A DNA stretch of 32,000 bases. Source: Mycolicibacterium smegmatis. Its GTDB lineage: Bacteria; Actinomycetota; Actinomycetes; Mycobacteriales; Mycobacteriaceae. The position numbers were made by a program, and so were the translations under genes. The notes beneath the pieces are model-generated. The model saw nothing but the letters and a program-made list of their open reading frames with translations. It did no database searches and was not told the origin of the DNA. The DNA lies in NCBI RefSeq assembly GCF_001457595.1, contig NZ_LN831039.1, forward strand, positions 480,001-512,000. The letters run 5' to 3'. This document shows positions 2,390-30,905 of this stretch, piece by piece. The first letter of the stretch is position 1, and each line of letters begins with the position of its first letter.

Positions 2390-2403
2390 GCACTGCCGCC
2401 CGG

Positions 2404-2646: not shown

Positions 2647-2991
2647 TGGCGCTGCCGGTTCGGCTGCGGTTGCGCGCCGCGCTGGCCGGTGTTGTGTGCT
2701 GCACCGAAGTCTTACCCCCACAAAATGTCGAACGATCGTGGACACGATAGCTGAGTTCAAGTCGGCAACCCGCAACCGCCCTGTTCCGGACCCTGGAACC
2801 GGCGCATCCGTCAATTAATTGCCTGAGTAAATACCAGAACAACCGGTGTTTGAGACGCCGTATTCCTGGGAATCCCGGCAGGGCGAACGTTGGAAGCCCG
2901 TGATGTCCCTCATGACTGGCTAACTAGATTTGTTCGCTGGCGGTGTTTATCATCGCCTCAGGGTAGATCGATGACAAAAGGCTGAAGAGGG

Positions 2992-3615
2992 ATGTTGGGG
3001 CGTTCGTTTCTGAACCTGGTCGGCACTGCGGCAGTGCTGGGGGCTCTGATTGCTGCAGCAATGCCACTCGGCCTGAGTGCCGTCGACCGCGCCGGTTCGC
3101 CGATTCCGTGTGGCACCGCGCTGAACCCGGACTACCGGGTCGCCGCGAAGGAAGACCTGCTGAACCACGATCAGTTCACGCTCGTCGGACCGGTGTTTGC
3201 CACCAGCGATTACAAAGGGCAGTGTGCCGAAATCGTCGGTCAGCGCAGAATGGCCGCCATGTCGGTGGCGGGCGGCGGAATCCTGATTTTGCTCACGGTG
3301 TTCACCGCGCCGTTTGCGGCGCAAGCCGCGGCACGCGTCGTCGCCTCACGCCGCAGCAGGCAGGCTGAGAACGCCGGCCCGGCGGAACCGGTTCGCGACG
3401 AGCCGGACCATGCCCCCGTGGGTGCCCAGTGGAGCGGTTACCAGGTCGGCGCCGGCCTCACGCAGCCGATCCTGGAAAAGACCCTCGGCGAGCAGATAGG
3501 AAGCCACGACTATGCGGCGGTCGCTGCGGCGGCGCTGCGCCGCGACGGCGTCGGCGATCCTCGGAGCGCCGGTGGCGGCGTAGGCCAGCTCTACGCGGTC
3601 GCCGGTAACGGCTGA
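2992..3615 (+). CDS. Hypothetical exported/membrane protein with an N-terminal signal or TM segment, two Cys and a second TM
   Basis: 207-aa ORF with hydrophobic N-terminus LNLVGTAAVLGALIAAAMPLGLSA, Cys40/Cys77 and a second hydrophobic stretch GGGILILLTVFTAPFAA. The last ~90 codons are antisense to the chelatase gene (3346-3615), so the C-terminal tail may be a read-through artefact of GC-rich antisense sequence. Confidence 0.45.
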   Translation: MLGRSFLNLVGTAAVLGALIAAAMPLGLSAVDRAGSPIPCGTALNPDYRVAAKEDLLNHDQFTLVGPVFATSDYKGQCAEIVGQRRMAAMSVAGGGILILLTVFTAPFAAQAAARVVASRRSRQAENAGPAEPVRDEPDHAPVGAQWSGYQVGAGLTQPILEKTLGEQIGSHDYAAVAAAALRRDGVGDPRSAGGGVGQLYAVAGNG

Positions 3616-4041
3616 CAGCATCGCGGCGGTCCGGCGCAGATCGGACTGTGCGTACGGGTCCGAGGTGCCGGCTGCGGCCAGGATCACCGCGTCGCCCGGC
3701 TGCCACCCGGATTCGACGAGCCGATCGGCGAGCACCCGGACGGTCCCGTGACAGGGTCCGAGCGGCGGGGTGACCGTGACGAGCGGATGGCCGCTGGCCG
3801 ACACATGAGCAGGAACGTCGACGCGCACGTGATACCCGGCGGCGAGGAATGCGGGCACCAGCACCACCGGCCGATCGGCCGGCATGGTGTCCAGCACGTC
3901 CCGTGGGGTCGGGCCCAATACGTCGACGAATGCGACCTGGACACTTCGTTCGAGCTGTTCGGCCACCCGCTCGGCGAGATCGGCGATCATCGCGACCCCA
4001 CCGGGTTTGCGGGTGCCGTGCGCCACCAGCAGCAGGCTCAT
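3346..4041 (-). CDS. CbiX/SirB-type sirohydrochlorin chelatase (Rv0259c-like)
   Basis: 231 aa from ATG 4041 (MSLLLVAHGTRKPGG...). Two-lobed CbiX pattern: VAHGTR in lobe 1 and AAAGTSDP in lobe 2. ATGA overlap (4038-4041) with the stop of the upstream regulator gene. The 436-aa ORF in the track is an upstream over-extension. Confidence 0.85.
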   Translation of the reverse strand: MSLLLVAHGTRKPGGVAMIADLAERVAEQLERSVQVAFVDVLGPTPRDVLDTMPADRPVVLVPAFLAAGYHVRVDVPAHVSASGHPLVTVTPPLGPCHGTVRVLADRLVESGWQPGDAVILAAAGTSDPYAQSDLRRTAAMLSAVTGDRVELAYAATGAPRIADAVAAQRRRSDRRIVVASYLLAEGLFQDRLREAGADLVTAPLGTHGGMVRLVANRFRRAGVLSLPAAA

Positions 4042-5225
4042 AACGCGCGTGCCATCTCTGTGTCGGTGTCGTCGACCGCCAGCCGATAACCCCTTTTCAC
4101 CACGGTGGACACGATGCTCTTGTCTCCCAATGCAGTTCGAAGGCGCAGCACCGCGGTCTCGACGGCGTGGGTGTCGGTCCCGCTGCCGGGCAGCGCGCCC
4201 AGCAGATCGAAACGTGACACCACCGCGCCGGGCCGGTGCGCGAGCGCCCGGATGGTGGCCATACCCGCGGGGGACAGCGACTTGACCACGCCGTCCACCA
4301 GCACGCAGGTCCCTCGGATCTCGAGGAGGTGACCCGCGACCCGCAACGTACGGGACTGCAGCAGGGGCAACTCGTCGGTGATGTGGCGGGCCAGTGCGCC
4401 CAACCGCATGCGCTCGGGCGCCGACGTGGGAATGCCGAGGCGCACGAGCGGACGCGCCGTGACCGGTCCGACGCACATCGCGTGGACGTCGGTGCGCAGC
4501 GCGGAGACCACCTGCTCGGTCAGTCCCAACTCGGTGGCTCTCATCAGCACCGAGGCGACGGCCGGGGCCGAGGTGAAACTGACTGCGTCGAAGCGCCGTT
4601 CGGCGATGCCTGCGACGAGTTGGTCGAACTCGCCGCCCGGTGGGGCGGGATGCCACCGGTAGACACGGATCGGCACCACCTCTGCACCCGCGACACGCAG
4701 CTCGTCGAGGAACTCAGGGAACGGATCCCAGTCGTCGGTGGCGCCGTGGAGTTGCACGGCGATGCGCCGGCCGTCGACGCCGTGCTCGACGAGGTAGCGG
4801 ACCACCTCGCGGGAGGATTCGGAGTCCGGCGACCACTCCTCCGGCAACCCGGCGGCCCGTAGTGCCCCCGTGGCCTTCGGCCCCCTGGACACGATGCGAG
4901 CCTTGCCCAGCGCCTCGGTCAGCTCGCCGGCCAGGCCCCAGCCGTCGGCTGCGGCGATCCACCCCCGCAACCCGATGCCGGTGGTGGCGACGACGATGTC
5001 GGGCGGGTCGGTGATCAACGACTCGGTGTGTGCCCGCAGTTCGTCGTCGTCGGGCAGCGGCACCATGGTGATCGCGGGCGCGCTGGTCACCGTCGCGCCC
5101 CTCCTGCGCAGCAGGGCGCACAGTTCATCGGCTCGTCGGGCGGAGGTCACCGCCACCCGGAATCCGGTGAGGGGTGCCCAGTCGGGCTCACGCATGCTTC
5201 CTGTGTAGGCAGGCTCTGTTTCCAC
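4038..5225 (-). CDS. Fusion protein: uroporphyrinogen-III synthase (HemD)-like domain plus a C-terminal OmpR/PhoB-type winged-helix DNA-binding domain (Rv0260c-like)
   Basis: 395 aa. The N-terminal ~250 aa are HemD-like (two alpha/beta lobes: RVAVTSARRADEL..., VATTGIGLRGW..., FTSAPAV). The C-terminus (RFDLLGALPGSGTDTHAVETAVLRLRTALGDKSIVSTVVKRGYRL) is typical trans_reg_C. GTG start at 5225 lies 4 nt after the narK3 stop; an alternative ATG is at 5195. Confidence 0.85.
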   Translation of the reverse strand: METEPAYTGSMREPDWAPLTGFRVAVTSARRADELCALLRRRGATVTSAPAITMVPLPDDDELRAHTESLITDPPDIVVATTGIGLRGWIAAADGWGLAGELTEALGKARIVSRGPKATGALRAAGLPEEWSPDSESSREVVRYLVEHGVDGRRIAVQLHGATDDWDPFPEFLDELRVAGAEVVPIRVYRWHPAPPGGEFDQLVAGIAERRFDAVSFTSAPAVASVLMRATELGLTEQVVSALRTDVHAMCVGPVTARPLVRLGIPTSAPERMRLGALARHITDELPLLQSRTLRVAGHLLEIRGTCVLVDGVVKSLSPAGMATIRALAHRPGAVVSRFDLLGALPGSGTDTHAVETAVLRLRTALGDKSIVSTVVKRGYRLAVDDTDTEMARAL

Positions 5226-5229
5226 GGCG

Positions 5230-6639
5230 TTACCCCGCGATTGCTGGGGCGTGTCGCTCGGTCCCTGTGACCGGCATCGCAGCGGGGCGGCGCACGTAGC
5301 AGAACCAGGTCACCACCGACGCCAGCACGTAGAACGCCAGGAAGATCCAGAACGCGGTGGTCGCCGAACCGCTGGATAGGTAGGACTGCCGCAACGCCAT
5401 GTTGATCCCCACGCCGCCCAGCGCCCCGACCGCACCCGCGAAGCCGATGAGCGCACCGGACATCGACCGCGACCAGTGCCTGCGCTCGTCCTCGCTGACG
5501 TCCAGCGAGTGGCTGCGCGCCTCGAAGATCGACGGGATCATCTTGTACACCGAACCGTTGCCGATACCGCTGAGCAGGAACAGCGCGATGAAACCGACGA
5601 CGTAGCCGCCCATCATCAGTCCGGTGGCGGCCTCGCTGCTGCCGTCGGAGACCGTGCTGACCGCGACCAGCAGACCGGCGCCCAGGATCATCCCGGCGAA
5701 CACCGCCAGGGTGACCCGCCCGCCGCCGATGCGGTCGGCGAGCTTGCCGCCGTACACCCGCGACAGGGAGCCCAGCAGCGGACCGATGAAGGCGATCTGC
5801 GCGGCGTGCAGCGACGCCTGAGCCGGGGTCTGGCCGCCGGAGATGAAGTTGATCTGCAACACCTGGCCGAACGCGAACGCGAACCCGATGAACGATCCGA
5901 ACGTGCCGATGTAGAGCAACGAGATGATCCACGTATCCCGTTCGCCCAGAATCGCTTTCATGGCACCGAGATCGATCTTGTGATGCTCGAGGTTGTCCAT
6001 GTACAGCGCCGCGCCCAGGCCCGCCACGGCAAGGGCGACCAGGTAGACCGCGCACACCCAGTACGGGGCCCGGTTGCCCGCCGTCGCGATCACGAACAGG
6101 CCCACCAACTGGATCATCGGGACGCCGATGTTGCCCCCGCCCGCGTTGAGTCCCAGCGCCCAGCCCTTGAGCCGCTGCGGGTAGAAGGCGTTGATGTTGG
6201 TCATCGACGACGCGAAGTTGCCCCCGCCGAAGCCGGCCAGCGCGGCGCACACCAGGTACGGCCACAGCGGCAGGCCCGGGTTGGCCATCAACACGACGGT
6301 CATCACGGTCGGGATCAGCAGCACGAGTGCGGAGAACACCGTCCAGTTGCGACCGCCGAACGTCGCGGTGGCCAGCGTGTACGGGATGCGCAGGCACGAC
6401 CCGACCAGGGTGGCCGTGGCCCCGAGCAGGAACTTGTCACCCGCCGAGAACCCGTAGACGGCCTCGGGCATGAACAGCACCATCACCGACCAGATCGACC
6501 AGATGGAGAAGCCGATGTGCTCGGCGACCACCGACCAGATCAGGTTGCGACGTGCGACGTACTTGTTGCCGGCCTCCCAGGCCACGACGTCCTCGGGATC
6601 CCAGTTCGTGATGCGCTTCGGCTTGAGCAGAGTGGGCAT
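5230..6639 (-). CDS. narK3: MFS nitrate/nitrite transporter (NarK family, NarK3-like)
   Basis: 469 aa, 12 predicted TM segments and a NarK-type glycine-rich motif (GFGGGNFASSM). Position matches Rv0261c synteny. Confidence 0.92.
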   Translation of the reverse strand: MPTLLKPKRITNWDPEDVVAWEAGNKYVARRNLIWSVVAEHIGFSIWSIWSVMVLFMPEAVYGFSAGDKFLLGATATLVGSCLRIPYTLATATFGGRNWTVFSALVLLIPTVMTVVLMANPGLPLWPYLVCAALAGFGGGNFASSMTNINAFYPQRLKGWALGLNAGGGNIGVPMIQLVGLFVIATAGNRAPYWVCAVYLVALAVAGLGAALYMDNLEHHKIDLGAMKAILGERDTWIISLLYIGTFGSFIGFAFAFGQVLQINFISGGQTPAQASLHAAQIAFIGPLLGSLSRVYGGKLADRIGGGRVTLAVFAGMILGAGLLVAVSTVSDGSSEAATGLMMGGYVVGFIALFLLSGIGNGSVYKMIPSIFEARSHSLDVSEDERRHWSRSMSGALIGFAGAVGALGGVGINMALRQSYLSSGSATTAFWIFLAFYVLASVVTWFCYVRRPAAMPVTGTERHAPAIAG

Positions 6640-6747
6640 GCGAGCACGCTAGAAAGCGATTATTGCCCCGACACTGCGCGCGATGACCCGGCCGTGAAAT
6701 TCCGCTCACCTGGATCGGCGGGCAGGTGTGAGAAAGCCGTTACGCGG

Positions 6748-8983
<2,236 letters not shown>

Positions 8984-8997
8984 CTACCCGCGGGTAG
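8984..8997. promoter_or_regulatory. Perfect 14-bp palindrome CTACCCGCGGGTAG, just upstream of the pxpB ORF and downstream of the yhhQ-like stop
   Basis: Read directly from the sequence. It has no loop, so it is a poor terminator and more consistent with a dimeric protein-binding site. Function unknown. Confidence 0.3.
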
Positions 8998-9048
8998 CTA
9001 AGAACGGTACGGCTCTGTGAGCCTTGCCAGAGCTGCCTTACCGAAGCC

Positions 9049-9729
9049 TCACACGGCGACCTGATACGTGGGTTCGGAGCGCTTGACGAACGCGATGACG
9101 CGGTAGGTCACCGGCAGCATGAGCACCTCTACGGCGGTCTTGTAGAACCAGCCGAGCGCGGTGTAGGTCACGAAGTCGCCGAATGTCGAGATGCCGATCG
9201 CACCCGCGGCGATCGCACAGAACACCAGCGTGTCGCCGAGCTGACCGGCGAACGTCGATCCGATCAGGCGCGCCCAGAGATGTTTCTCCTTGGTCCGCTG
9301 TTTGATGGCGACGACGACCCAGGCGTTGATGGTCTGCCCGACGAGGAACCCGGCCAGGCCGGCGACGATCAGCTGTGTGTAGGCGCCGACGACGTTCTCG
9401 AAGTGCTCCTGATTGGTGTAGAAGTCGGCCGCGGGCAGATAGACGGTGACCCAGAACGCGAGCGCGGCCAGCGCGTTCATCGCGAAACCGAGCAGGATCG
9501 CGCGACGTGCGGCCTTGAAGCCGTACACCTCCGACAGCACGTCGCCGATCACGTAGGTCAGCGGGAACACGATGAACCCGCCGTCGGTGATGATCGGTCC
9601 GAACGCCACGCCTTTGGTGGCGGTGACGTTGGAGATGATCACCAGGGCCGTGAAGACCGCGACGAACATCGGATAGTAGGCCGATCCGACGGAGGCGGTG
9701 CCGCGGTGCTCGGGTTCGGGAATGCTCAC
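9049..9729 (-). CDS. yhhQ: YhhQ/VUT-family membrane protein (queuosine-precursor transporter family)
   Basis: 226 aa, ~6 TM segments and family-typical motifs (ISNVTATK, VFPLTYVIGDVLSEVYG, ARRAILLGF). Confidence 0.82.
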   Translation of the reverse strand: MSIPEPEHRGTASVGSAYYPMFVAVFTALVIISNVTATKGVAFGPIITDGGFIVFPLTYVIGDVLSEVYGFKAARRAILLGFAMNALAALAFWVTVYLPAADFYTNQEHFENVVGAYTQLIVAGLAGFLVGQTINAWVVVAIKQRTKEKHLWARLIGSTFAGQLGDTLVFCAIAAGAIGISTFGDFVTYTALGWFYKTAVEVLMLPVTYRVIAFVKRSEPTYQVAV

Positions 9730-9753
9730 TCGGCCTATCTTCTCAGGCCGTGC

Positions 9754-10707
9754 TCATCCCAGCACGCGGGCCAACTCCGGCGGCAGTTGATCGGCGACGA
9801 CGGGATAGGACAGCGGCGAGGCGAAGGCGATGGCTCCCGCGAGCTCCTTGGTGGTGAAGATGTTCCGATCACGCCTCGTGGCCGCGAGTTGAGCGACGAT
9901 GGGGTCCGCCAGCAACGCATCGCGGTCCTGATCGCTCTCGGTCGTCCAAATCAGCACGTCGGCGCCGTCGAGCACCGAGGCGATCTCGTCGCGGGGGATC
10001 AACGCGGGCACCTCGGGCACCGTCAGGCCCATCTGCGTGAGGAAGTCGGTGCGCCATCCCGGCGGCGTGGCCTGCACACCGCCGCGGTACAACGTGCCGC
10101 CCAGCAGGAGTGCCTTCTTGCCGGAGAATTGCGGGTGATCGGTCTTCACGGTGGTGAACCTGTCGTCGACCGATTTGATCAGCTCGGTCATCTCGGCGTT
10201 CTTGAACACCGCCTGACCGATGATCGTGGCCTGGTCCTTCCACGGTTCGAAGAACGCCTCGGAGCCGGTCTGCGCGACCGTCGGAGCGATCTCGGACAGC
10301 TTCGCGTAGGTGTCGGCGTCCAGGCCCGCGTTGGTGGCGACGATGAGATCCGGTTTCAGTGCCGCGATCTCCTCGACCGGGATGCCGTTGTCGAGGTTGA
10401 GCACGGTGGGCTGCGCCCCGGCGAGTTGCCGTTGCGCCCAAGGCCATACGCCGAACGGTTCACCACCGAACCAGTCGGTCACCGCGATCGGCACGACCCC
10501 GACCGCGAGCAGGTCGTCCTGCTCGGTGAGACCGGCGCTCACCACACGCTGGGGCGGGCCGGGGATCGTGGTGTCGCCGAAGGCGTGGCGGACGGTGACC
10601 GATCCGTCGTCGGCGACTTCGCCGGGTTTGTCGGTGCTGCACGCGGCCACGAGTGCCAATCCGGCGGTCACCGCCAGAAACCCGCGTCGGGTCAGTGGTC
10701 TCGGCAC
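9754..10707 (-). CDS. fecB2: Periplasmic iron-siderophore/heme-type ABC substrate-binding lipoprotein (FecB2/Rv0265c-like) with a Tat-type signal
   Basis: 317 aa. Twin-arginine motif TRRGFL followed by lipobox LVAAC. Class III SBP-like body (DLIVATNAGLD...). No cognate permease or ATPase genes in the window. Confidence 0.86.
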   Translation of the reverse strand: MPRPLTRRGFLAVTAGLALVAACSTDKPGEVADDGSVTVRHAFGDTTIPGPPQRVVSAGLTEQDDLLAVGVVPIAVTDWFGGEPFGVWPWAQRQLAGAQPTVLNLDNGIPVEEIAALKPDLIVATNAGLDADTYAKLSEIAPTVAQTGSEAFFEPWKDQATIIGQAVFKNAEMTELIKSVDDRFTTVKTDHPQFSGKKALLLGGTLYRGGVQATPPGWRTDFLTQMGLTVPEVPALIPRDEIASVLDGADVLIWTTESDQDRDALLADPIVAQLAATRRDRNIFTTKELAGAIAFASPLSYPVVADQLPPELARVLG

Positions 10708-10722
10708 TTCGCCAGCGTACGG

Positions 10723-11859
10723 TCAGTCCAGGGTGAAGCTGCCGAACAACACGGTGGCGAGTCCCAGTGCGACGACGATGTTGACGACAGTCGCCGACGC
10801 GAACACCGCGATCGGCCGCCAGCCTGCCTCACGCAGTCCGCGTGCGGAGAACTCCAGCCCGATCGCCACGAACGCGAAGATCAGGAACCAGTTCCGCAGA
10901 TCGTTGACCGTCGCGATGGCGGCCTTGCCGTCCGCGGCGAACTGCAGGTACAGCGTGCCGATGATCGAGGCGGCGATGAAGCCCAGCACGAATTTCGGGA
11001 AACGGTCCCAGAATTGGCTCAGTGACGGGCGCGCATCGGCGGCTGTCCTGCGTTCGACCTTGAGCGCGAAGTAGGCCGTGAGCGCAATCGCGACGAAACC
11101 GATCAGCGCGTTCTGCGTGGTCTTGACGATCGTCGCGATCTGCAGCGCATCCTCACCCGCGATCGCGCCGGACGCTGCGACGGCCGCGGTGGTGTCGATG
11201 TTGCCGCCGATCCACGCGCCGGCGACGGCGTCGGACAGGCCGAACACGTCTGCCAGCCACGGCAACAGGAAGATCGAGGGCAGGGCGAAGACGATCACCA
11301 GCGAGGCGGCATAGGCCAGTTGTTCCTTCTTCGCCTGCACCGCACCTGCGGCCGCGATCGCCGCGCTCACCCCGCAGATCGACACCGCGGATGCCAGCAA
11401 CGCGCGCAGTTTGTCCTCCAGGCCGAGCCTGCCACCCAGCCACCAGGTGAACCCGAACACGATCGAGATGAGCAACAGTGCCTGGATGATGGCCGGGCCC
11501 GCCGCGGTGACCAGCACCTTGAGGTTGATGGACGCGCCCAGCAGCACCAGGCCGGTCTTGATGAAGAACTCGGTGCGGAATCCGCGCGACAGCGCGTCGC
11601 GCAGCGCGAGCTTGGACAGGATCGCATTGCCGATCAACCCCAGAGCGATTGCGTACACCGGGAATTCGATCGACTTCGCGGCCTTGGCGAACGACGTGCC
11701 CGCGAACCACTGGGGCACCTGGGCCTCGAGAAACTTGGTGGCCGCCCCGAGTGCGACGACGACGAGGACGCCTGCGACGGCGTAACCGAGCGCGGACTGG
11801 CCCGACTGCCGTGGCTGCCCCGACTGCCCGGACTGTTCTTCGGTGCGCTGCTCGGTCAC
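10723..11859 (-). CDS. yeiH: YeiH/UPF0324-family integral membrane protein (putative sulfate exporter family)
   Basis: 378 aa, ~10-11 TM segments and UPF0324-like sequence (FFIKTGLVLLGASINL...). GTG start. The N-terminal low-complexity tract (SGQSGQPRQSGQS) is encoded by a 9-bp tandem repeat. Confidence 0.83.
   Translation of the reverse strand: MTEQRTEEQSGQSGQPRQSGQSALGYAVAGVLVVVALGAATKFLEAQVPQWFAGTSFAKAAKSIEFPVYAIALGLIGNAILSKLALRDALSRGFRTEFFIKTGLVLLGASINLKVLVTAAGPAIIQALLLISIVFGFTWWLGGRLGLEDKLRALLASAVSICGVSAAIAAAGAVQAKKEQLAYAASLVIVFALPSIFLLPWLADVFGLSDAVAGAWIGGNIDTTAAVAASGAIAGEDALQIATIVKTTQNALIGFVAIALTAYFALKVERRTAADARPSLSQFWDRFPKFVLGFIAASIIGTLYLQFAADGKAAIATVNDLRNWFLIFAFVAIGLEFSARGLREAGWRPIAVFASATVVNIVVALGLATVLFGSFTLD
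11794..11838. repeat. Imperfect 9-bp tandem repeat x5 (GGACTGGCC CGACTGCCG TGGCTGCCC CGACTGCCC GGACTGTTC) inside the 5' end of the yeiH-like gene
   Basis: Read directly. It encodes the Q-S-G repeats on the minus strand, stays in frame, and could vary in length between strains. Confidence 0.6.
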
Positions 11860-11945
11860 GGGATCACACTCCCCGGGACGGCCCCGGCCAGGACCAGTCC
11901 CAGCAGTGCGAGACCGACGATCACGGCGAGCCAGTCCTCATTCAC
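11856..11945 (-). CDS. Candidate 29-codon hydrophobic micro-ORF (VNEDWLAVIVGLALLGLVLAGAVPGSVIP) overlapping the yeiH-like start by GTGA
   Basis: Hand translation of the minus strand. GTG start at 11945; the TGA stop (11856-11858) overlaps the yeiH GTG (11857-11859). GC3 is high and there is one clear TM helix. It is below the ORF-track length cutoff. No SD is evident. Confidence 0.3.
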   Translation of the reverse strand: MNEDWLAVIVGLALLGLVLAGAVPGSVIP

Positions 11946-12009
11946 GCGGTTCACGCGCGTCAGGTTAAGAAGGCGATGCTCCGGATTGAAGAATTGCGAT
12001 CACCGCGAT

Positions 12010-12723
12010 TCAAGGGGTCAGCGCGACGTTGAGTGCTTGCCCTACGGCCGCGGTGTCACCCTCGACCTTCGCCGTCTCGAGCAGGTCGCGCCGCTTCCAC
12101 AATCCGAGGTAGAGGTCCTCGGCCGATGCGGTCACCGTCGCCACCGGTTCGCTCGGCTCGGTCCCGCCGACCGTCCACGTGTGCTCGGTGTCGGCGGTGC
12201 GGAACAGGATGGGTGCGGCCACCGGTTCGGTACGGCCGAAGCGCACCTGGCGCGGGTAGAACACGGTCAGGACCTCGTCGACGCCGTCGGCGCAGAACTC
12301 CGGGGCGAGGCCGACGGGGTCGGCGCCGACCGCGTGCTGCAGGTCCGCGTGGTGTACGGCGTGTTCGTGGGCCTGGCGGCGGATCCAGAAACCTGCGAGC
12401 CGGGGCTTCGGCCCGAAGCCCCAGCACGGTTCATCGGCGTCGACCGCCCGCATCGCGGTGAGGTAGTCGGGGATGCCGTCGAGGAAATCGGCGACGGCCT
12501 GGGTGGGCTCGTCCTGCGGTTGCGGTTCCTCCGCCAACTCGCGGGTGCGCAGGATCTGGCGTACCCAGGACTCGATCGACCACAGGTGGCCCAGCAAATC
12601 GACGACCGTCCAACCCGGGCAGGTCGGTACCGCACGCGCGAGGTCGGCGTCTTCACCGAGGGCATACGACTGGATGGCGAGCACGTCGGTCTGTAATTGC
12701 GTCAGGAGCGTGTTGTCGTCCAC
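12010..12723 (-). CDS. DinB-fold, mycothiol-dependent maleylpyruvate-isomerase-family protein (TIGR03083-like)
   Basis: 237 aa with the N-terminal metal-binding domain signature (...CPGWTVVDLLGHLWSIESW..., HEHAVHHADL). Lies 9 nt downstream of the TetR gene on the same strand. Confidence 0.8.
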   Translation of the reverse strand: MDDNTLLTQLQTDVLAIQSYALGEDADLARAVPTCPGWTVVDLLGHLWSIESWVRQILRTRELAEEPQPQDEPTQAVADFLDGIPDYLTAMRAVDADEPCWGFGPKPRLAGFWIRRQAHEHAVHHADLQHAVGADPVGLAPEFCADGVDEVLTVFYPRQVRFGRTEPVAAPILFRTADTEHTWTVGGTEPSEPVATVTASAEDLYLGLWKRRDLLETAKVEGDTAAVGQALNVALTP

Positions 12724-24188: not shown

Positions 24189-24251
24189 CAATAGCCGACT
24201 TTTAATGAGTAGCTCTTTTCAGCGCTGAAGCGTCTCTGGCATCATCAATTG

Positions 24252-24986
24252 ATGCTCGATCGTCCGATTGCTGGTGAACTCCACGGCAGCCTCGTTGCCG
24301 CGCTGGGAACCGGGATCGTCTCGGGCCGTTACCAGCCCGGACATGTGCTCAACCTGGAGGGGATCAGCGCCGAGCACGGCGTGTCCCGCAGCGTTGCGCG
24401 TGAGGCGGTGCGTGTCCTGGAGTCCATGGGGATGGTCGAGTCGCGCCGCCGGGTGGGCATCACCGTGCAGGGTCCCGAGAAGTGGAACGTCTTCGACCCG
24501 GTGCTGATCCGCTGGCGGCTGCAAGCCGGTGACCGCACGGCGCAACTGGTGTCGCTGTCGGAACTACGACTGGGTTTCGAACCGGCCGCGGCCGCGCTGG
24601 CCGCGCGGCGGGCGAGCCCGCACCAGTGCCGCGTCCTGGCAACCGCGGTGTCCGACATGGTGATGCACGGACGCAACGGCGACCTCGCGGCGTATCTGGC
24701 GGCAGACAAGCTCTTTCACCAGACCATGCTGGAGGCGAGCGGCAACGAGATGTTCCGGGCGCTCAACGGCGCGGTTGCCGAGGTGCTCGCCGGTCGCACC
24801 CATCACGGCCTGATGCCGGAGAAACCGAACATCGACGCGATCGCCCTGCACGACGAGGTCGCCCGCGCCATCAGGATGGGCGAGGCCGATCAGGCCGAGC
24901 GGGCCATGCGCGCGATCATCGGCGAGTCGGTCTCGGCCATCGTCGAGGTCGGACCCCCGGGTGCAGGGACCGCCGCGCAGGCATGA
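24252..24986 (+). CDS. gntR: GntR-family (FadR/FCD subfamily) transcriptional regulator
   Basis: ~244 aa with an N-terminal wHTH (EGISAEHGVSRSVAREAVRVLESMGMVESRRRVG) and a C-terminal FCD-like helical domain. ATG 24252; the track starts at TTG 24249. Confidence 0.9.
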   Translation: MLDRPIAGELHGSLVAALGTGIVSGRYQPGHVLNLEGISAEHGVSRSVAREAVRVLESMGMVESRRRVGITVQGPEKWNVFDPVLIRWRLQAGDRTAQLVSLSELRLGFEPAAAALAARRASPHQCRVLATAVSDMVMHGRNGDLAAYLAADKLFHQTMLEASGNEMFRALNGAVAEVLAGRTHHGLMPEKPNIDAIALHDEVARAIRMGEADQAERAMRAIIGESVSAIVEVGPPGAGTAAQA

Positions 24987-25057: not shown

Positions 25058-26485
25058 ATGCGCGAATATCTCAAGTTCTACATCGACGGCCGCTGGGTGG
25101 ATCCGGCCGAGCCGCGGACCCTCGACGTCGACAACCCGACCACCGAGCAGGTCGCCGGGCGCATCGCGATCGGCGCGGCGGCAGATGTCGACGCCGCGGT
25201 CGAAGCGGCCCGCAAGGCGTTCACCACGTGGTCGCAGACCTCCCGCGACGAGCGCCTCGCGGTCCTGGGCGCGATCCTCGACGAGTACCAGAAGCGCGCG
25301 TCCGACCTCGCCGACGCGGTCAGTGAAGAGATGGGTGCGCCGGCATCGCTGGCCGCGGGTCCGCAGGTCAGGATGGGCCTGGGGCACCTCACCACGTCGA
25401 TCGAGGCGCTCAAGAAGTTCCAGTTCGAGGAGCAGTACGGCAGCACCCTGGTGGTCAAGGAGCCGATCGGTGTCTGCGGTCTCATCACGCCGTGGAACTG
25501 GCCCATCAACCAGATCGCGTGCAAGGTGTTCCCCGCGTTGGCCACCGGCTGCACCATGGTGCTCAAGCCGTCCGAGGTGGCCCCGTTCTCGGCGCAGATC
25601 TTCACCGAGATCGTCGACGCCGCAGGCGTTCCCGCCGGCGTGTACAACCTCGTGTACGGCGACGGTCCCGGCGTGGGCTCCGAGCTGTCGAGCCACCCCG
25701 ACATCGACATGGTGTCGTTCACCGGGTCCACCCGCGCGGGCATCGACGTGGCGAGGAACGCCGCGCCCACCGTCAAGCGCGTGACGCAGGAATTGGGCGG
25801 AAAGAGCCCCAACATCGTGCTGGACGACGCCGACTTCGCCAAGAGCGTGGCGGCAGGCGTATCGGCGATGATGACGAACAGCGGGCAGAGCTGCAACGCT
25901 CCTTCGCGCATGCTGGTGCCGAATTCCCGTATGGACGAGGCGATCACGATCGCTCGCGGGACCGTCGCAGCGGTGAAGGTCGGCGATCCGTCCGACAAGA
26001 AAGCGATCGGTCCGGTCGCGTCGAAGGCCCAGTTCGACAAGATCCAGGGGCTCATCCAGAGGGGCATCGACGAGGGCGCGACGCTCGTCGTCGGCGGCAC
26101 CGGGCGCCCCGACGGCCTCGACACGGGCTACTACGTCAAGCCGACGGTGTTCGCCGACGTCACCAACGACATGACGATCGCGCGGGAGGAGATCTTCGGC
26201 CCCGTGCTGTGCATCCTCGGCTACGAGGATCTGGACCAGGCCGTCGAGATCGCCAACGACACCGAATACGGCCTGGCCGGCTACGTCTCAGGCGCGGACC
26301 TCGAAACCGCGCGTGCCGTGGCCCGCCGCATCCGTGCTGGATCGGTCGCGATCAACCACGGATTCGATCTCAGCGCCCCGTTCGGCGGGTACAAGCGCAG
26401 CGGCAACGGACGCGAGTGGGGCCACTTCGGTTTCGACGAGTACCTCGAGACCAAGGCCGCGATGGGCTACGCGCCGCCACAGTAG
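25058..26485 (+). CDS. NAD(P)+-dependent aldehyde dehydrogenase
   Basis: 475 aa from ATG 25058 (GAGGAAGG SD 10 nt upstream). Catalytic motifs ELGGKSP and NSGQSCNAPSR (catalytic Cys), plus EEIFGPV. Confidence 0.92.
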   Translation: MREYLKFYIDGRWVDPAEPRTLDVDNPTTEQVAGRIAIGAAADVDAAVEAARKAFTTWSQTSRDERLAVLGAILDEYQKRASDLADAVSEEMGAPASLAAGPQVRMGLGHLTTSIEALKKFQFEEQYGSTLVVKEPIGVCGLITPWNWPINQIACKVFPALATGCTMVLKPSEVAPFSAQIFTEIVDAAGVPAGVYNLVYGDGPGVGSELSSHPDIDMVSFTGSTRAGIDVARNAAPTVKRVTQELGGKSPNIVLDDADFAKSVAAGVSAMMTNSGQSCNAPSRMLVPNSRMDEAITIARGTVAAVKVGDPSDKKAIGPVASKAQFDKIQGLIQRGIDEGATLVVGGTGRPDGLDTGYYVKPTVFADVTNDMTIAREEIFGPVLCILGYEDLDQAVEIANDTEYGLAGYVSGADLETARAVARRIRAGSVAINHGFDLSAPFGGYKRSGNGREWGHFGFDEYLETKAAMGYAPPQ

Positions 26486-26516: not shown

Positions 26517-28658
26517 CTACTCCGCGGGAGCGGGTGTCACGTCGGCACCGGAGCCCTTGATCGACGCTTTCGCGCGGTTCTCGGGCCGCACGGCCTTCTT
26601 GCCGCGCACGTAGCCGGTCTTGGAGATCGACGCCGCGAGCAGGGCGTCCTCGCCCTTGACGAACGGGTGGAACGCCACGCCGGCGCCTCCGCGGCCCTTG
26701 ACCGGGATGTCGGCGACTTCGGTGACCTTCCAACTCTTTTCGGCGATCGACAGGATGGCCTCGCCGTTGGCGCACGACACCGGCAGCGCGGCGATCACCT
26801 CGTCACCGTCGGCCGCGAGCTTCACCCCGGCCACACCGTTTCCGGCGACGCCCTGCGGGTTCACCGACGCCGGGTCGACACGCAGGATCTTGCCGCGCCG
26901 CGTCACGAGCGCCAGATGGTAGCCCTCCGGAAGCACACCCGAGCGCACCAGACCGGTGATGTCGGGCGCGACCGGGATGTCGCGGATCTTGAACGGCAGA
27001 CCGTTGCCGGTCGTGAACTTGATACGACCGTCGGACCACACAGCCCAGCCGAGCCCGGAGGTGAGCAGCTCACCGTGGCTGTCGGAGAACACCCCTCGGT
27101 CGTCGAGACGCCAGGCCGTGTTGACCTTGCGTTCGCGTGAACCGTCCTCGTCGCCGCGGGATACCGGCGTCGCGTCCAAGTCCAGCACGGTGCGCCGGTC
27201 GTACTCGGGGCCCTTGAACAGCTTCGCGGTCTCGACGAGTTCCTTGTCGATCACCTTGCGGCGGGACTCGGGGTTGGTCACCAGATCATTGAGTTCGGCG
27301 AACTCGGCGTCGAGCTTCTCGGCCTCGGCCTGCAGCTCGATGACGTCGAGTTTGGTCAGTCGCCGAAGTTGCAGCGACAGAACGTAATCCGCCTGCTCGG
27401 CGTCGATCTTGAACCGCTCCTGCAGGCCCTTGCGGGCCTCGTCGACGGTCTCGGAGCCGCGGATGACCGCGACGGCGGCGTCGATGTCGAGGTGGATCTT
27501 CATCAGACCGGCCACCAGATGGCGGCGCGCGGTGACCTTCTCCAGCCGGTATTCACTGCGGTGCAGCACCACCGAATCGCGCAGCTGGAGGAATGTCATG
27601 ATCAGGTCACGCACCGACCACCAGCGCGGTACGCGGTTCTCGTCGAGGGCCACCAGGCTCGCGGCGAAGGTGGATTCCAGCGGTGTGAGGGCGAGCAGTT
27701 GGTCGCGGATCTGTTCTGCGTTGTGGCCGCGCTTGGCGGTGACGACGATGCGCAGGCCGTTGCGGCGGTCGGTGAGGTCGGACATGTCCGCGACCCCCGA
27801 CATCTCGCCGGACTCGACGAGGGCACGGATGCGGTCCTGCACGGTGTTGCTCGCGACGCCGGGTGGCAGTTCGGTGATGATGCAGTTCTTGCCCTCGACC
27901 GAGATCGTGCCGCGCACGGTGAAATGCCCACGGCCGGTGGTGATGTACTCACGCAGCCCGGCCGTGCCCACCACACTCGCGCCGGACCCCCAATCGGGTC
28001 CGGGGATCAGCTTGCACAGCCGGTCGTCGGTCATGTTCGGCGTCTTCAGCAGCGCCCGGCAGGCCGCCATCACCTCGCGCGGATTGTGTGCGGGCACCTT
28101 GGTGGCCCACCCCTCGGCGATGCCGACGGCCCCGTTGCACAGCAGCACGGGCCACTGCGCGGGCAGCACGGTCGGCTCGATCCATTCGCCGTCGAACGTC
28201 GGCACCATCGGTACCGCGTGGTCGTTGAGTTCGGCGGTCAGCGCCGCGCCCGGTGCCGAGAGCCGCATCTCGGTGTACCGGTCGGCGGCGGGGATGTCGC
28301 CCTGGATGCGGGGGAACGCGCCTTGTCCGTCAATGACTTTCACGCGCTGGAAGTCCGCGGCCATCAGCGCCGCGGCGCCGTACATCGAGGCGCCGCCGTG
28401 GGGGTGCAGGTTGCCGGTGACCGCCGAGCACACCTTCGACGACTTCTGCGGTTTGTTGCCTGGCAGCAGTTTCGAGTCGTGCATCTGGTACAGCAGTCGA
28501 CGCTGACCGGGTTTGAGCCCGTCGTACGCCGACGGGATGGCGCGGTCGCTGACGCTGTAGAGCGCGAAGGTCAGTTGGTAGTGGTTCCAGTAGTCGTCGG
28601 CGCTCTGGTCGAGCACCAGATCGGGGTTCTGCTCGGGAACGTCCAGGGTGGCGGTCAC
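26517..28658 (-). CDS. Type IIA DNA topoisomerase subunit A, short GyrA/ParC-like paralog (TopoNM-like)
   Basis: 713 aa from GTG 28658 (GGAG 9 nt upstream). Catalytic Tyr context AADRYTEMRLS, QRDR-equivalent HPHGGASMYG, a coiled-coil region and only ~210 aa of C-terminal beta-pinwheel-like sequence. Lies 11 nt downstream of the GyrB-like gene. Confidence 0.9.
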   Translation of the reverse strand: MTATLDVPEQNPDLVLDQSADDYWNHYQLTFALYSVSDRAIPSAYDGLKPGQRRLLYQMHDSKLLPGNKPQKSSKVCSAVTGNLHPHGGASMYGAAALMAADFQRVKVIDGQGAFPRIQGDIPAADRYTEMRLSAPGAALTAELNDHAVPMVPTFDGEWIEPTVLPAQWPVLLCNGAVGIAEGWATKVPAHNPREVMAACRALLKTPNMTDDRLCKLIPGPDWGSGASVVGTAGLREYITTGRGHFTVRGTISVEGKNCIITELPPGVASNTVQDRIRALVESGEMSGVADMSDLTDRRNGLRIVVTAKRGHNAEQIRDQLLALTPLESTFAASLVALDENRVPRWWSVRDLIMTFLQLRDSVVLHRSEYRLEKVTARRHLVAGLMKIHLDIDAAVAVIRGSETVDEARKGLQERFKIDAEQADYVLSLQLRRLTKLDVIELQAEAEKLDAEFAELNDLVTNPESRRKVIDKELVETAKLFKGPEYDRRTVLDLDATPVSRGDEDGSRERKVNTAWRLDDRGVFSDSHGELLTSGLGWAVWSDGRIKFTTGNGLPFKIRDIPVAPDITGLVRSGVLPEGYHLALVTRRGKILRVDPASVNPQGVAGNGVAGVKLAADGDEVIAALPVSCANGEAILSIAEKSWKVTEVADIPVKGRGGAGVAFHPFVKGEDALLAASISKTGYVRGKKAVRPENRAKASIKGSGADVTPAPAE

Positions 28659-28669
28659 GTGAAAGTCTC

Positions 28670-30703
28670 CTACGTCAGGTCCAGCGCGGAGGTGTCGACA
28701 CGGGCGGCGACATCGGCCATCCACGTGCGCCGGCCCTCCGGCGGTCCGCCGAACAACGTGTGGTGCAGCTTCTTCTCGCTCTCATCGGGGCGCACCCGAA
28801 TCACCGTGCGGCGCTGCGGATCCAGCACGGTGTTCCAGAAGTCGTCGGCGTCCATCTCACCGAGACCCTTGTTGCGCTGTACCTCCACGCGTCGGTTGGA
28901 GGACGCCTTCAACTGGGCCACGGCCGCGTCGCGTTCGGACTCGTCCTGGCAGTAGATCCGCTCGTCGCCTGCCTTCACCACGAACAGCGGCGGCATGGTC
29001 ACGTACACCATCCCGGCTTCGACGAGCGGACGGTAGAAGTCCAGGAACATCGAGATCAGGCTCGAGTTGATGTTGCCACCGTCGGGGTCGGCGTCGGAGG
29101 CGAACAGGATCCGGTCGTACCGGCACAGTTCCGGGTCGCAGTGGTCGCGCACGCCGCAGCCCAGGATGCGCTCGATCGCGTCGAACTCGTCTTTGGCCCG
29201 CGCCTTGTTCAACGGGAAACCGTAGACGTTGGGCGGCTTGCCTTTCAGCGGGAACGCGGCCTGGAACGTCGCGTCGCGCGCGGCCTTGATGGTGCCCAGA
29301 GCCGAATCGCCCTCGCAGAGGAACAGTTCGGCGCCCGAACCACGGCCCGACTCGCGGCTGGGCAGCAGCTTGGGCGGCAGCGACAGGTTGGTACCGAGAC
29401 CTTTGGCCTTCGATGCCGCACGGGCGCGGGCCTTGGCGCCCTCGGCGCTGCGGCGGGCGCGCGCGGACTCCAGTGCCAGCTTGCTCCACAGCGTCACGGT
29501 GTCGGCGTTGGCGGGGTTGGCCGCCCAGATCGTCACGCTGCGCGCCACATCCGGGGCCATCGCCAGGTTCAGCGAGCGCGACGACACCGCGGTCTTGGCC
29601 TGCGAATCCCACGCGACGTCCGGTGCGCGGGTGTCCACGGCCAGTGCGGTCACGGCCGCGAAATCCTGTGGTTCCGGGCCTTCTTCGTTCTTGGCCAGGC
29701 CCAGATCGCGCATGCGGGACGCGCGCTCGGCCAACGCCTCGGACAGACCCTTGATCGCGGCGGTCAGGTGCGATCCGCCGCCGGGTGTGCGCACGGTGTT
29801 GCAGAACGCGGCGACCGTCGCCGGTTCGGCCGGTCCGGCCGTCAGCGACCAGCGGAACGGGGTCGGTCCGCGGCCCGTGGTGTACTCGCCGCGGCCTTCC
29901 ACGACGGCGCGGACCTCGGGCAGGGGAGTGCCCGCCGCGGTGCACATGAGGTCCAGCAGGGTTTCGGTGCCCCACGGCCCGCTGAACGGTTCGAGCACCG
30001 CCGGCGGGACCTCTTCGCCGGGCCAGCCCTCGTCGACGACGACCAGGTGCACGCCGGGCGACATCCGCGCCGCGGCGTGTGCGCGCAGCAGCACCTCGCC
30101 GATGTCCAGGGTCGAGTCCGGCGCGATCGCAGGGTCGAACAGGATGCGCACCTCGGTGCCGTGCAGGTCGGGCTTGCGGTTGCTGACGCCGCGCAGTTTC
30201 TGGGTGTCGTTGCGGGTGAACGGGGCCTCCGGGTCGAACTCCTTGCCCTCGAACACGCCCGGATAACCGCGGCCGAAGCTCTGCAGAAAGGTCTTGCCGT
30301 CACGGCGCACCGTGACGTCGGTGCGCGCGGAGATGAACACCGCGGCCGCCGCGCCGATGCCGTTGAGGCCGGCGCCGGTGCTGGTGGCGTCCTTGTGCGC
30401 GGAGAACTTGCCGCCGGCGCGGGCTGTGCCCAGCGTCTTGACGATGCCGTTCTTCCCGGTGGTCGGGTCGGTGTCGACGGGCAGGCCGCGGCCGTCGTCG
30501 GCGACGCTGACCGAACCGTCGGCGTGCAGGGTGATCGTGACGGTCGACCCGCCGTGGCCGGGATCGGCGACCTCCTCGATCGCGTTGTCGACGATCTCGC
30601 GCAGGGCGGTGTTGAGCACGTCGAGGCCCAGGTTCACCGCCGGCCGCAGCCGCGTGTGCTGGACATCGTCGAGCTCGGTGATGTCTGCGGCGGTGTAACT
30701 CAC
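28670..30703 (-). CDS. Type IIA DNA topoisomerase subunit B, GyrB/ParE-like paralog (TopoNM-like)
   Basis: 677 aa from GTG 30703 (GGAGAG 8 nt upstream); an in-frame ATG 30766 is an alternative start. GHKL motifs EIVDNAIEE, DDGRGLP and GLNGIG; QTK-loop-like SQAKTA; Toprim motifs CEGDSA and SDADPDGG. Confidence 0.9.
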   Translation of the reverse strand: MSYTAADITELDDVQHTRLRPAVNLGLDVLNTALREIVDNAIEEVADPGHGGSTVTITLHADGSVSVADDGRGLPVDTDPTTGKNGIVKTLGTARAGGKFSAHKDATSTGAGLNGIGAAAAVFISARTDVTVRRDGKTFLQSFGRGYPGVFEGKEFDPEAPFTRNDTQKLRGVSNRKPDLHGTEVRILFDPAIAPDSTLDIGEVLLRAHAAARMSPGVHLVVVDEGWPGEEVPPAVLEPFSGPWGTETLLDLMCTAAGTPLPEVRAVVEGRGEYTTGRGPTPFRWSLTAGPAEPATVAAFCNTVRTPGGGSHLTAAIKGLSEALAERASRMRDLGLAKNEEGPEPQDFAAVTALAVDTRAPDVAWDSQAKTAVSSRSLNLAMAPDVARSVTIWAANPANADTVTLWSKLALESARARRSAEGAKARARAASKAKGLGTNLSLPPKLLPSRESGRGSGAELFLCEGDSALGTIKAARDATFQAAFPLKGKPPNVYGFPLNKARAKDEFDAIERILGCGVRDHCDPELCRYDRILFASDADPDGGNINSSLISMFLDFYRPLVEAGMVYVTMPPLFVVKAGDERIYCQDESERDAAVAQLKASSNRRVEVQRNKGLGEMDADDFWNTVLDPQRRTVIRVRPDESEKKLHHTLFGGPPEGRRTWMADVAARVDTSALDLT

Positions 30704-30847
30704 TGCTCGTTCTCTCCAAAAAGTGGGGTGGTGTGCCGGTGGAATGGTAGACGCCGGATCAGACATCACCGCGCATCTGCGCTGCAACCTGCGATGTGAT
30801 CTGCCGCGATACGTACGGAAGTGGTCCAGACCACAGCCACCTGTCAG

Positions 30848-30865
30848 GGTAGGGACAGCCCTACC
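30848..30865. promoter_or_regulatory. Short hairpin/inverted repeat GGTAGGG-ACAG-CCCTACC in the topoisomerase/kinase divergent region
   Basis: 7-bp perfect arms with a 4-nt spacer, read directly, ~40 nt upstream of the kinase ATG. Function unknown. Confidence 0.25.
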
Positions 30866-30905
30866 TTGAATACGCGGGCACACGGGATGGGGGTGGATCC
30901 GGCAG

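Follow-up and report, generated by a model that had tools for sequence, protein, structure and literature searches.

Why does a mycobacterium that already possesses a gyrase keep a second, divergent pair of type IIA topoisomerase genes, and where could such a pair have come from? The question is raised by a stretch of 32,000 nucleotides (nt) of Mycolicibacterium smegmatis DNA (contig NZ_LN831039.1, positions 480,001 to 512,000; the window in what follows, numbered from its first letter), the minus strand of which encodes, between 26517 and 30703, a GyrB/ParE-like subunit followed by a GyrA/ParC-like one. According to our analysis it is practically certain that this locus is the topoN-topoM operon of M. 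smegmatis, which encodes TopoNM, an accessory ATP-dependent type IIA topoisomerase of A2B2 composition present besides gyrase. TopoNM, made of TopoN and TopoM, was reportedly described in this species by Jain and Nagaraja (2005, Mol Microbiol 58:1392). The enzyme itself is consequently not new, and what we add is its distribution, its mobile relatives, the family status of its C-terminal domain (CTD) and a predicted promoter. Taken together, the explanation that joins identity, mechanism, CTD, predicted regulation and mobile origin seems to us highly probable.

Identity of the gene pair

The first gene of the operon, topoN (28670-30703, minus strand), runs from a GTG at 30703 to a TAG at 28672-28670 and codes for a B subunit of 677 amino acids (aa), which joins GHKL ATPase, transducer and Toprim domains to a C-terminal tail of the GyrB type. 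The second, topoM (26517-28658, minus strand), starts with a GTG at 28658, ends at 26517 and codes for an A subunit of 713 aa, in which a breakage-reunion core (winged-helix domain (WHD), tower and coiled coil) is followed by a short CTD. A Shine-Dalgarno sequence, GGAGAG, can be read on the minus strand at 30712-30717, 9-14 nt upstream of the topoN start. At the junction of the two genes (28659-28671, minus strand) the spacer is exactly 11 nt, and the Shine-Dalgarno of topoM, AGGAGA (28671-28666), overlaps the topoN stop codon. A first-pass annotation, made from the letters of the window, had described two adjacent minus-strand genes 11 nt apart, each with its own Shine-Dalgarno, which these coordinates bear out. 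Mechanically longest open reading frames (ORFs) of both genes reach further upstream; gene calls made independently on public contigs yield the same 677-aa and 713-aa products, and the GTG of topoN with its Shine-Dalgarno, in the equivalent form GGAAAGGA or GGAGAGAA, is kept in 38 out of 38 orthologous loci. The ratio of nonsynonymous to synonymous substitution rates (dN/dS) against orthologues is 0.09-0.24 for topoN and topoM alike. Both genes are under purifying selection, and the operon is real, intact and conserved, no chance pair of ORFs.

NCBI genomes under the name Mycolicibacterium smegmatis contain proteins of 713 and 677 aa identical to these two, and members of the same 90% cluster in M. 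anyangense and M. chitae are annotated as 'topoisomerase subunit TopoM'. For strain mc2 155 the canonical gyrA is MSMEG_0006, and a 'gyrase subunit A' (MSMEG_0456) and a 'topo IV subunit B' (MSMEG_0457) are listed besides it (PMC12702967); gyrB is MSMEG_0005 (PMC5656591). The order and strand of MSMEG_0456/MSMEG_0457 agree with those of the window genes. Since MSMEG_0005 and MSMEG_0006 are the canonical gyrase, the topoNM pair is an additional enzyme. We infer its match to the published topoN and topoM, with high confidence, from the annotations and from its being the sole extra type IIA pair mentioned for the species; organism and B-then-A gene order are those of the 2005 description, and as far as can be told nothing differs at the locus itself. 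As a side observation, a preprint on NapM mentions a further gyrB homologue of M. smegmatis, MSMEG_1229, which M. tuberculosis lacks and the expression of which is raised when napM is deleted, in a strain that grows better on novobiocin (bioRxiv 10.1101/2024.11.29.625984), and this species may hold more spare type II parts than TopoNM alone.

For a class test we used the equivalog cut-offs of NCBIfam (TIGR01063 and NF004043 for gyrA, TIGR01059 for gyrB, plus the parC and parE models). TopoM scores 437 and 452 bits with the gyrA models, whose cut-offs are 877 and 902, and 345 and 319 bits with the parC models (cut-offs 813 and 629); TopoN scores 280 bits with the gyrB model (cut-off 882) and 252 and 248 bits with the parE models (cut-offs 723 and 900). 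Both subunits thus reach only about one third to one half of what is asked of a member of gyrA, gyrB, parC or parE, and the operon encodes a complete type IIA enzyme distinct from both gyrase and topoisomerase IV. The first-pass annotation had called the pair extra and divergent, had named it TopoNM on the supposition that the window was from M. smegmatis, and had proposed to place both subunits by profile searches and phylogeny. The sub-cut-off scores, the canonical gyrase genes elsewhere, the identical proteins of M. smegmatis genomes and the TopoM-annotated cluster mates support its naming, and the placement, now made, leaves both subunits outside the four equivalogs; a neighbour-joining tree of the core domain is discussed below.

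In reviews TopoNM is presented as a two-subunit type II enzyme, a GyrB/ParE-like TopoN with a GyrA/ParC-like TopoM, which relaxes supercoils of both signs, can decatenate DNA and supercoil it positively, and is little affected by fluoroquinolones and coumarins, and they state its mechanism and function as unknown (PMC8084294, PMC11894792), in agreement with the earlier remark that the enzyme is not new and its role unresolved. Its strand passage is reported to depend on ATP, as summarised in PMC8084294. It has also been presented as unique to M. smegmatis and as a 'stand-alone' lineage (PMC11894792, PMC2647321).

Catalytic anatomy and quinolone-contact residues

Pfam recognises HATPase_c, DNA_gyraseB, Toprim and DNA_gyraseB_C in TopoN, and DNA_topoisoIV (E 1e-110; profile positions 1-431/432) with one weak GyrA_C repeat in TopoM. 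The GHKL and transducer motifs of TopoN are intact, namely EIVDN (E36-x-x-D-N40), DDGRG (69), GGKF (97), GLNGIG (112) and QAK (368-370), and so are those of its Toprim domain, E464 in CEGDSA, PLKGK (485), DADPDG (537-542) and KGLGEM (612). They align with mycobacterial GyrB motif by motif, and residues 150-284 are too divergent for alignment with solved GyrB sequences. Domains and motifs together confirm that the B subunit is complete, as had been claimed. The catalytic tyrosine, which had been placed in the context AADRYTE, is Tyr128 (codon 28275-28277, minus strand), aligned with AAMRYTE of M. tuberculosis GyrA.

The equivalent of the quinolone resistance-determining region, residues 85-100 (HPHGGASMYGAAALMA; 28359-28406, minus strand), aligns without gaps to M. 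tuberculosis GyrA (3ifz, 5bs8), and G89, A90, S91 and G94 of TopoM pair with D89, A90, S91 and D94 there. TopoM has no acidic residue at 94, and it also lacks the serine (Ser83 in E. coli), as M. tuberculosis GyrA does. The water-metal bridge of quinolones is anchored by that acidic residue and serine, and in M. tuberculosis the replacement D94G, by which the acidic residue is lost, gives strong fluoroquinolone resistance. The low fluoroquinolone sensitivity reported for TopoNM would therefore be explained by Gly89, Ala90 and Gly94 at the quinolone-contact positions.

Sequence matches in the PDB cover only residues 24-492 of TopoM, GyrA and ParC being about equal among them, and include no solved structure of TopoNM. 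By Foldseek the full TopoM model matches the A subunits of gyrase and topoisomerase IV.

Distribution and limits of the family

The 120 best database matches are all proteins of Mycobacteriaceae (Mycolicibacterium/Mycobacterium) with 73-96% identity, among them those of M. goodii, parafortuitum, flavescens, vaccae, chitae, duvalii, novocastrense, aubagnense, fortuitum, mageritense and conceptionense. A scan with one genome per species, of the kind that the first-pass annotation had suggested, found the pair in at least 38 species-level genomes of Mycobacteriaceae with 74-93% identity, the next matches having 44% or less. Fast-growing mycobacteria commonly have the pair, which is no peculiarity of M. 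smegmatis, and the statement that it is unique to one species is outdated. Wherever both genes of a mycobacterial locus were recovered, topoN immediately precedes topoM. What flanks the pair in M. smegmatis recurs in none of the 38 other species' loci, and a different downstream gene is common to 13 of the 38.

Two lineages of TopoM can be told apart by identity to the M. smegmatis protein, one at about 86-93% (~88%) and one at about 74-78% (~75%), and they are distributed incongruently among related species. M. vaccae (90%) and M. austroafricanum (75%) differ in lineage, and so do M. porcinum (89%) and M. fortuitum (76%), both of which pairs we take to be close relatives. M. porcinum differs in lineage from M. 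conceptionense too. Such incongruence hints at replacement or transfer within the genus.

Beyond the mycobacteria, an exhaustive phmmer search of 1.84 billion representatives of 50%-identity clusters found about 19 further family clusters, which align over their full length in one stretch with 36-53% identity. After them the scores step down to ordinary GyrA and ParC proteins, which align over the N-terminal core only. Three of the clusters (P0151, P0161 and P0169) are B-A fusions of 1377-1427 aa, in which TopoM forms the C-terminal part, a fourth fusion, P0329, is a single 1451-aa gene (L006:2617-6972), and all four come from metagenomes. Altogether the more distant relatives, fusions included, span 36-65% identity, and all ten distant clusters that we looked up are metagenome-only. 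Judged by these sequence comparisons, TopoNM forms a discrete family. In the neighbour-joining tree of the core domain the mycobacterial clade, which takes in a plasmid copy and one IMG/VR copy, has a bootstrap of 100, a sister clade of mobile-element copies has 94, and the union of both clades and the core family have 62. The published picture of an enzyme of one species thus differs from the one that emerges here, of a family with members in no fewer than 38 species of Mycobacteriaceae, on one plasmid and on metagenomic contigs that resemble mobile elements.

Two metagenome-assembled genomes labelled 'Acidobacteria bacterium' (L115, JAKIXW010000016.1) and 'Spirochaetes bacterium' (L088, GCA_008012165.1 SSEG01000011.1) carry a mycobacterial-type TopoNM with 87% and 58% identity, respectively, and the contig L087, from the same sister clade as L088, encodes DUF732 and PknH_C proteins typical for mycobacteria. 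The labels Acidobacteria and Spirochaetes are probably due to binning contamination.

Copies on mobile elements and the origin of the family

One copy of the pair (L003; NZ_CP012886.2, 194409-198581) is carried by a circular plasmid of 437 kb in a slow grower, M. intracellulare subsp. chimaera AH16, where hypothetical genes and a MoxR/DUF58 cluster lie around it; its proteins are 86-88% identical to those of M. smegmatis. On those metagenomic contigs that were retrieved the surroundings look like mobile elements. In L004 two small ORFs and a homing endonuclease of the HNH type (694 aa) stand between topoN and topoM (L004:5696-8735), and the neighbours, all with PHROG matches, are MazG, a DNA polymerase exonuclease subunit, an ATP-dependent ligase and a metallophosphoesterase. 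L005 is an ORFan-rich contig with a neighbour similar to gp78 of mycobacteriophage L5 (Phage_L5_Gp78). In L087 and L088 topoNM lies among ORFans together with IS605/TnpB, Cas3/Cas1, DUF732, PknH_C and HU genes, and a gene is inserted between topoN and topoM, one with a PTH2 domain in the former (L087:9597-9959) and an N6/N4 DNA methyltransferase in the latter (L088:8494-9962).

These contexts recall the type IIA enzymes of phages and plasmids (T4 gp39/52/60 and ParC/GyrA-like ones), as the distant relatives of TopoNM are likewise found among replication and nucleotide-metabolism genes of ORFan-rich elements, with the two genes separated by homing endonuclease or methylase genes and in some cases fused B-A as in eukaryotic and viral topoisomerase II. 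The T4-type enzymes are no closer to the TopoNM family than bacterial GyrA or ParC, and the likeness ends with the phages themselves, as no INPHARED phage has a member of the family and one IMG/VR contig does. This contig (L007/L169, IMGVR_UViG_3300040985_002881), the sole one with the family CTD in two scans of IMG/VR, belongs to the mycobacterial clade. It encodes a large serine recombinase (Resolvase, Recombinase, Zn-ribbon) and an AAA_25 protein 5-7 kb downstream (8301-9764 and 10619-12631), which looks like the edge of an integrative element, and has flanks common to no other locus.

A viral origin of TopoNM has been suggested by Forterre and Gadelle (PMC2647321). We reject such an origin via known phages, since there is no close phage match and IMG/VR has one member; a match in a jumbo phage of 203 kb (L011) was also rejected as a family member, being of the ordinary GyrA/ParC type by its CTD profile. 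Plasmid carriage is proven, 'phage' would be guesswork, and it is safer to speak of a 'plasmid or other mobile element'. With this wording we favour, as rather probable, that the TopoNM family arose on mobile elements and was then taken up by many fast-growing mycobacteria. The ancestral enzyme might have served as a helper in replication or segregation of such an element, to be retained by mycobacteria, which to our knowledge are without topoisomerase IV.

Several findings weigh against this account. A tblastn search with TopoM against 50,697 phage records (INPHARED) gave nothing above 36% identity, and that over the N-terminal core only; recognised viral collections hardly contain the family, with the one IMG/VR contig as their contribution. 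The 30 kb around the pair in M. smegmatis contain no integrase, transposase or anomaly of GC content or composition. Monophyly of the core family has a bootstrap of only 62% in the neighbour-joining tree, and P0167 and P0170 group elsewhere on the core domain. A metagenome scan for more distant contexts returned copies of the mycobacterial clade only. A genomic-island signature in M. smegmatis was considered and rejected, the region being free of GC anomaly, integrase and transposase. PMC8084294 proposes a link to Ept/Wadjet, an SMC-like system of plasmid defence; this was set aside as well, as the window has no SMC-like or other defence genes.

Carriage by mobile elements is typical of resistance genes, and with Gly89, Ala90 and Gly94 at the quinolone contacts it could make TopoNM a replacement for a drug target, giving self-resistance or acquired resistance against natural gyrase poisons such as quinolone-like compounds, coumarins or peptide toxins. 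We consider this unlikely. Neither in the window nor elsewhere among the examined loci does the pair have a biosynthetic cluster or toxin gene beside it, independence of gyrase is not known for M. smegmatis, and the family is old and diverse, with identities down to 36% and fused forms, which fits maintenance of a replicon better than a recent selection by drugs.

C-terminal domain of TopoM

The CTD of TopoM comprises residues 512-713 (202 aa; 26520-27125, minus strand), and the first-pass claim of a short domain agrees with this. Its AlphaFold2 model, computed for the CTD alone (pLDDT 86.8, pTM 0.81), suggests a shortened beta-pinwheel of about four strand groups, or blades, where GyrA has six blades and about 300 aa. 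In Foldseek the best match is the CTD of M. tuberculosis GyrA (4g3n, E 2e-8, TMq 0.60, 16% identity), followed by 1wp5 (E 1e-7), 1zi0 and 1zvt (1e-3), and only GyrA and ParC CTDs are significant. Identity to these structural matches is 13-18%, the TopoM domain having about two-thirds of their length, and TMt on the GyrA CTD structures is 0.44-0.47 with under half of the targets covered. The fold is equally similar to ParC and GyrA CTDs, and the sequence forms a family of its own: with a hidden Markov model of the CTD, family members score 172-272 bits, all ordinary GyrA and ParC proteins 117 or less, and the ParC-like proteins of Micrococcales 50-73.

A search for the canonical GyrA box, Q[RK]RGG[RK]G, found no match anywhere in TopoM; its absence from the start of the CTD had been noticed before. 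The GyrA-box-like KGRGGAGV that had been pointed out in its stead is indeed in the last blade (residues 654-661; 26676-26699, minus strand, read from the sequence); in the family K654, G655, G660 and V661 do not vary, and conservation of R656 and G657 is at least 90%. One blade before it stands QGVAGNGVAGV (602-612), and both motifs are nearly invariant in the family. They belong to the last two repeats as ordinary glycine-rich motifs of a blade, and KGRGGAGV is not demonstrable as a displaced GyrA box. A basic tail, R-A-K-A-S-x-K, is conserved at the C-terminus of TopoM.

TopoNM thus shares with DNA gyrase the A2B2 type IIA architecture, the GHKL ATPase, the Toprim domain, the WHD tyrosine and the beta-pinwheel fold of the CTD, and differs from it in sequence (identity of the catalytic core about 35%, of the CTD 13-18%), by a CTD of about 200 aa and about four blades against about 300 aa and six, by the missing GyrA box and by a location away from dnaA. 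Given the size of the TopoM CTD, the missing box and the context, there is no sequence basis for negative supercoiling.

With topoisomerase IV the enzyme has the missing GyrA box in common, as well as the relaxation and decatenation to be expected, and it could fill the niche of a decatenase in mycobacteria. The pair might accordingly be read as a divergent, vertically inherited orthologue of actinobacterial ParE/ParC, lost in slow growers and dedicated to decatenation of the chromosome. Many sources label the protein 'topoisomerase IV', and the nearest cellular relatives are ParC-like proteins of Micrococcales (Leucobacter, Microbacterium, Rothia) with 40-44% identity over residues 29-676; the nearest representatives outside the family pass only the generic NF004044, 'DNA topoisomerase (ATP-hydrolyzing)'. 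Vertical descent of this kind is nevertheless quite improbable in our opinion. Both subunits stay far under the parC and parE cut-offs, and the CTD is of a family separate from that of the Micrococcales proteins by the bit scores given above. The closest relatives outside the mycobacterial clade are in contexts similar to mobile elements and not in chromosomal par loci, the flanks are not conserved among species, the plasmid copy nests within the mycobacterial clade, and the ~88% and ~75% lineages are incongruent among related species. The reported positive supercoiling also sets TopoNM apart from topoisomerase IV.

That the pair is the housekeeping gyrase, as which sources often annotate it ('DNA gyrase subunit A/B'), or a decaying duplicate of it, is refuted by the separate MSMEG_0005 and MSMEG_0006, by scores of about half the gyrA and gyrB cut-offs or less, by the CTD of about four blades without a GyrA box, by a context without dnaA, dnaN or recF and by catalytic residues that are all intact under a dN/dS well below one.

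A predicted PafBC-type promoter

If TopoNM is an accessory enzyme, one may ask when it is made. On the minus strand at 30744-30765 we predict a promoter of the PafBC type, TGTCTG-ATCCGGCGTC-TACCAT with a spacer of 10 nt, the -10 hexamer of which is at 30749-30744; the motif ends 40 nt upstream of the topoN GTG. The published PafBC motif is tGTCgg(N10)tA(N3)T, with a -26 element read by PafB and coupled to a SigA -10 hexamer (PMC8635444). The topoN site has the bipartite 22-nt form of the PafBC (RecA-NDp) regulon promoters, tGTCgg-N10-tAnnnT, with exact spacing and a suitable distance from the gene. It is the sole match to TGTCNG-N10-TANNNT on both strands of the window, where 0.24 would be expected by chance. 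Upstream of topoN in orthologous loci, TGTC-N12(+/-1)-TAnnnT is present in 22 out of 38 (shuffled sequences: mean of 0.19 loci), an AGTC or CGTC variant in five further loci and TGTC-N12-cAGAAT or GACAAT in five more; several species have a perfect TGTCGG or TGTCGGTG form, and the motif is matched also on the plasmid copy L003 and the phage-like contig L005. The full motif is missing from the loci L108, L110, L111, L112, L121 and L124 of the ~75% lineage and from L004 and L006, which share GGCGTGTCG upstream of topoN.

From this motif we predict, with a little less than even expectation, that the topoNM operon is under the control of PafBC, the activator by which mycobacteria respond to DNA damage and replication stress. 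Three points tell on the other side: the -26 element of M. smegmatis, TGTCTG, is one mismatch away from tGTCgg, in which it differs from the regulon consensus; the instances are related by descent, and 22 of 38 is a measure of conservation and not of independent recurrence; and MSMEG_0456 and MSMEG_0457 are not mentioned in the accessible PafBC papers, supplements and data sets, which do not include the key regulon paper of 2018. In biofilms expression of the topoNM genes falls (0.37 and 0.54) and on recovery it rises (4.3 and 3.05), and in the same study DNA-repair enzymes are down in biofilms and the replication genes of its table follow the same pattern (PMC12702967). Such expression is compatible with PafBC control and not diagnostic of it.

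A scan for sigma-70 consensus promoters found nothing, as expected for mycobacteria. The two-component system adjacent to topoN was considered as a dedicated regulator and is an unlikely one, since it stands beside topoNM in none of the 38 other species.

Proposed mechanism and function

By analogy with the known type IIA enzymes, TopoNM would very probably work by generic ATP-driven two-gate strand passage in an A2B2 tetramer. ATP would make TopoN dimerise by way of the GHKL domain (E36, N40, the lid GLNGIG and the transducer lysine of QAK), the acids of the TopoN Toprim domain (E464, D537, D539 and D541) would cleave the gate segment of DNA together with Tyr128 of TopoM, and a second duplex would pass the break and leave by the coiled-coil C-gate. 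As the pinwheel is short and has no GyrA box at its start, the positive wrap of the gyrase type that drives negative supercoiling is not to be expected. TopoNM would accordingly be predicted to act as a relaxase and decatenase, the introduction of positive supercoils being taken from the literature alone. Two reservations apply here: positive supercoiling goes back to one study of 2005 that is known to us via reviews, and the N-terminal 190 residues of the full-length TopoM model are of low confidence.

A promoter of the PafBC type would bring expression under DNA damage and replication stress, including the stress that comes from gyrase poisons, to which TopoNM should be insensitive. We may even suggest, tentatively and as a possibility that is easily doubted, that TopoNM is a domesticated topoisomerase of mobile elements which serves fast-growing mycobacteria as a PafBC-dependent, damage-inducible and intrinsically quinolone-insensitive back-up, and that its four-bladed CTD marks a fifth bacterial lineage of type IIA enzymes. 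When gyrase is poisoned or replication is stressed, TopoNM would then relax and decatenate the chromosome or large plasmids and phage genomes.

Genomic surroundings

On one side of the operon lies an aldehyde dehydrogenase gene (25058-26485, plus strand), and on the other a HisKA_3 sensor kinase gene, which starts at 30906 on the plus strand, diverges from topoN and is followed by a NarL-type response regulator. Gene calls on identical public contigs leave a divergent intergenic region of 202 nt (30704-30905) between topoN and this kinase and regulator operon. As the first-pass annotation had it, these neighbours are not dnaA, dnaN or recF, none of which is present in the window. In the divergent region a perfect 7-bp inverted repeat, GGTAGGG-CTGT-CCCTACC (30848-30865), is located 41 nt upstream of the kinase ATG and about 83 nt upstream of the -26 element of topoN, and the adjacent response regulator of the NarL/GerE type may have an operator in this repeat.

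Further genes around the pair are a GntR regulator and gluconate genes, and the window also encodes a nitrite reductase, CbiX, a transporter of the MFS type, a 5-oxoprolinase-type subunit, a CN hydrolase and an amidohydrolase. Its left part (3-8296) holds a cluster of the nitrite-assimilation type, with the NirB large subunit cut by the window start, CbiX and the MFS transporter; after it comes the carboxyltransferase subunit of the 5-oxoprolinase type, all ordinary metabolic genes unrelated to topoNM. ARAGORN calls a tRNA-Ala(cgc) of 90 nt at 24560-24649 (minus strand), inside the ORF of the GntR family (24249-24986, plus strand); Rfam at its gathering threshold finds no tRNA or other RNA family in the window, and the call is probably a false positive.

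Meaning for mycobacterial biology

Reviews from 2021 and 2024 still treat TopoNM as an enzyme of a single species with an unknown function. With its distribution, its mobile carriage and the promoter motif the question of function becomes testable, by induction on DNA damage, dependence on PafBC and tolerance to fluoroquinolones. As far as sequence comparison can tell, the wider distribution, the fused mobile relatives, the CTD family and the promoter would be useful additions to a question that is 20 years old.

Our results speak for an idea of long standing, according to which cells acquire unusual lineages of topoisomerases from mobile elements. If the back-up function is true, the four-bladed CTD, which occurs also in single-chain B-A fusions, would have its own geometry of DNA handling, and the action of fluoroquinolones in non-tuberculous mycobacteria would have to be seen in the presence of a second type II enzyme that is insensitive to these drugs.

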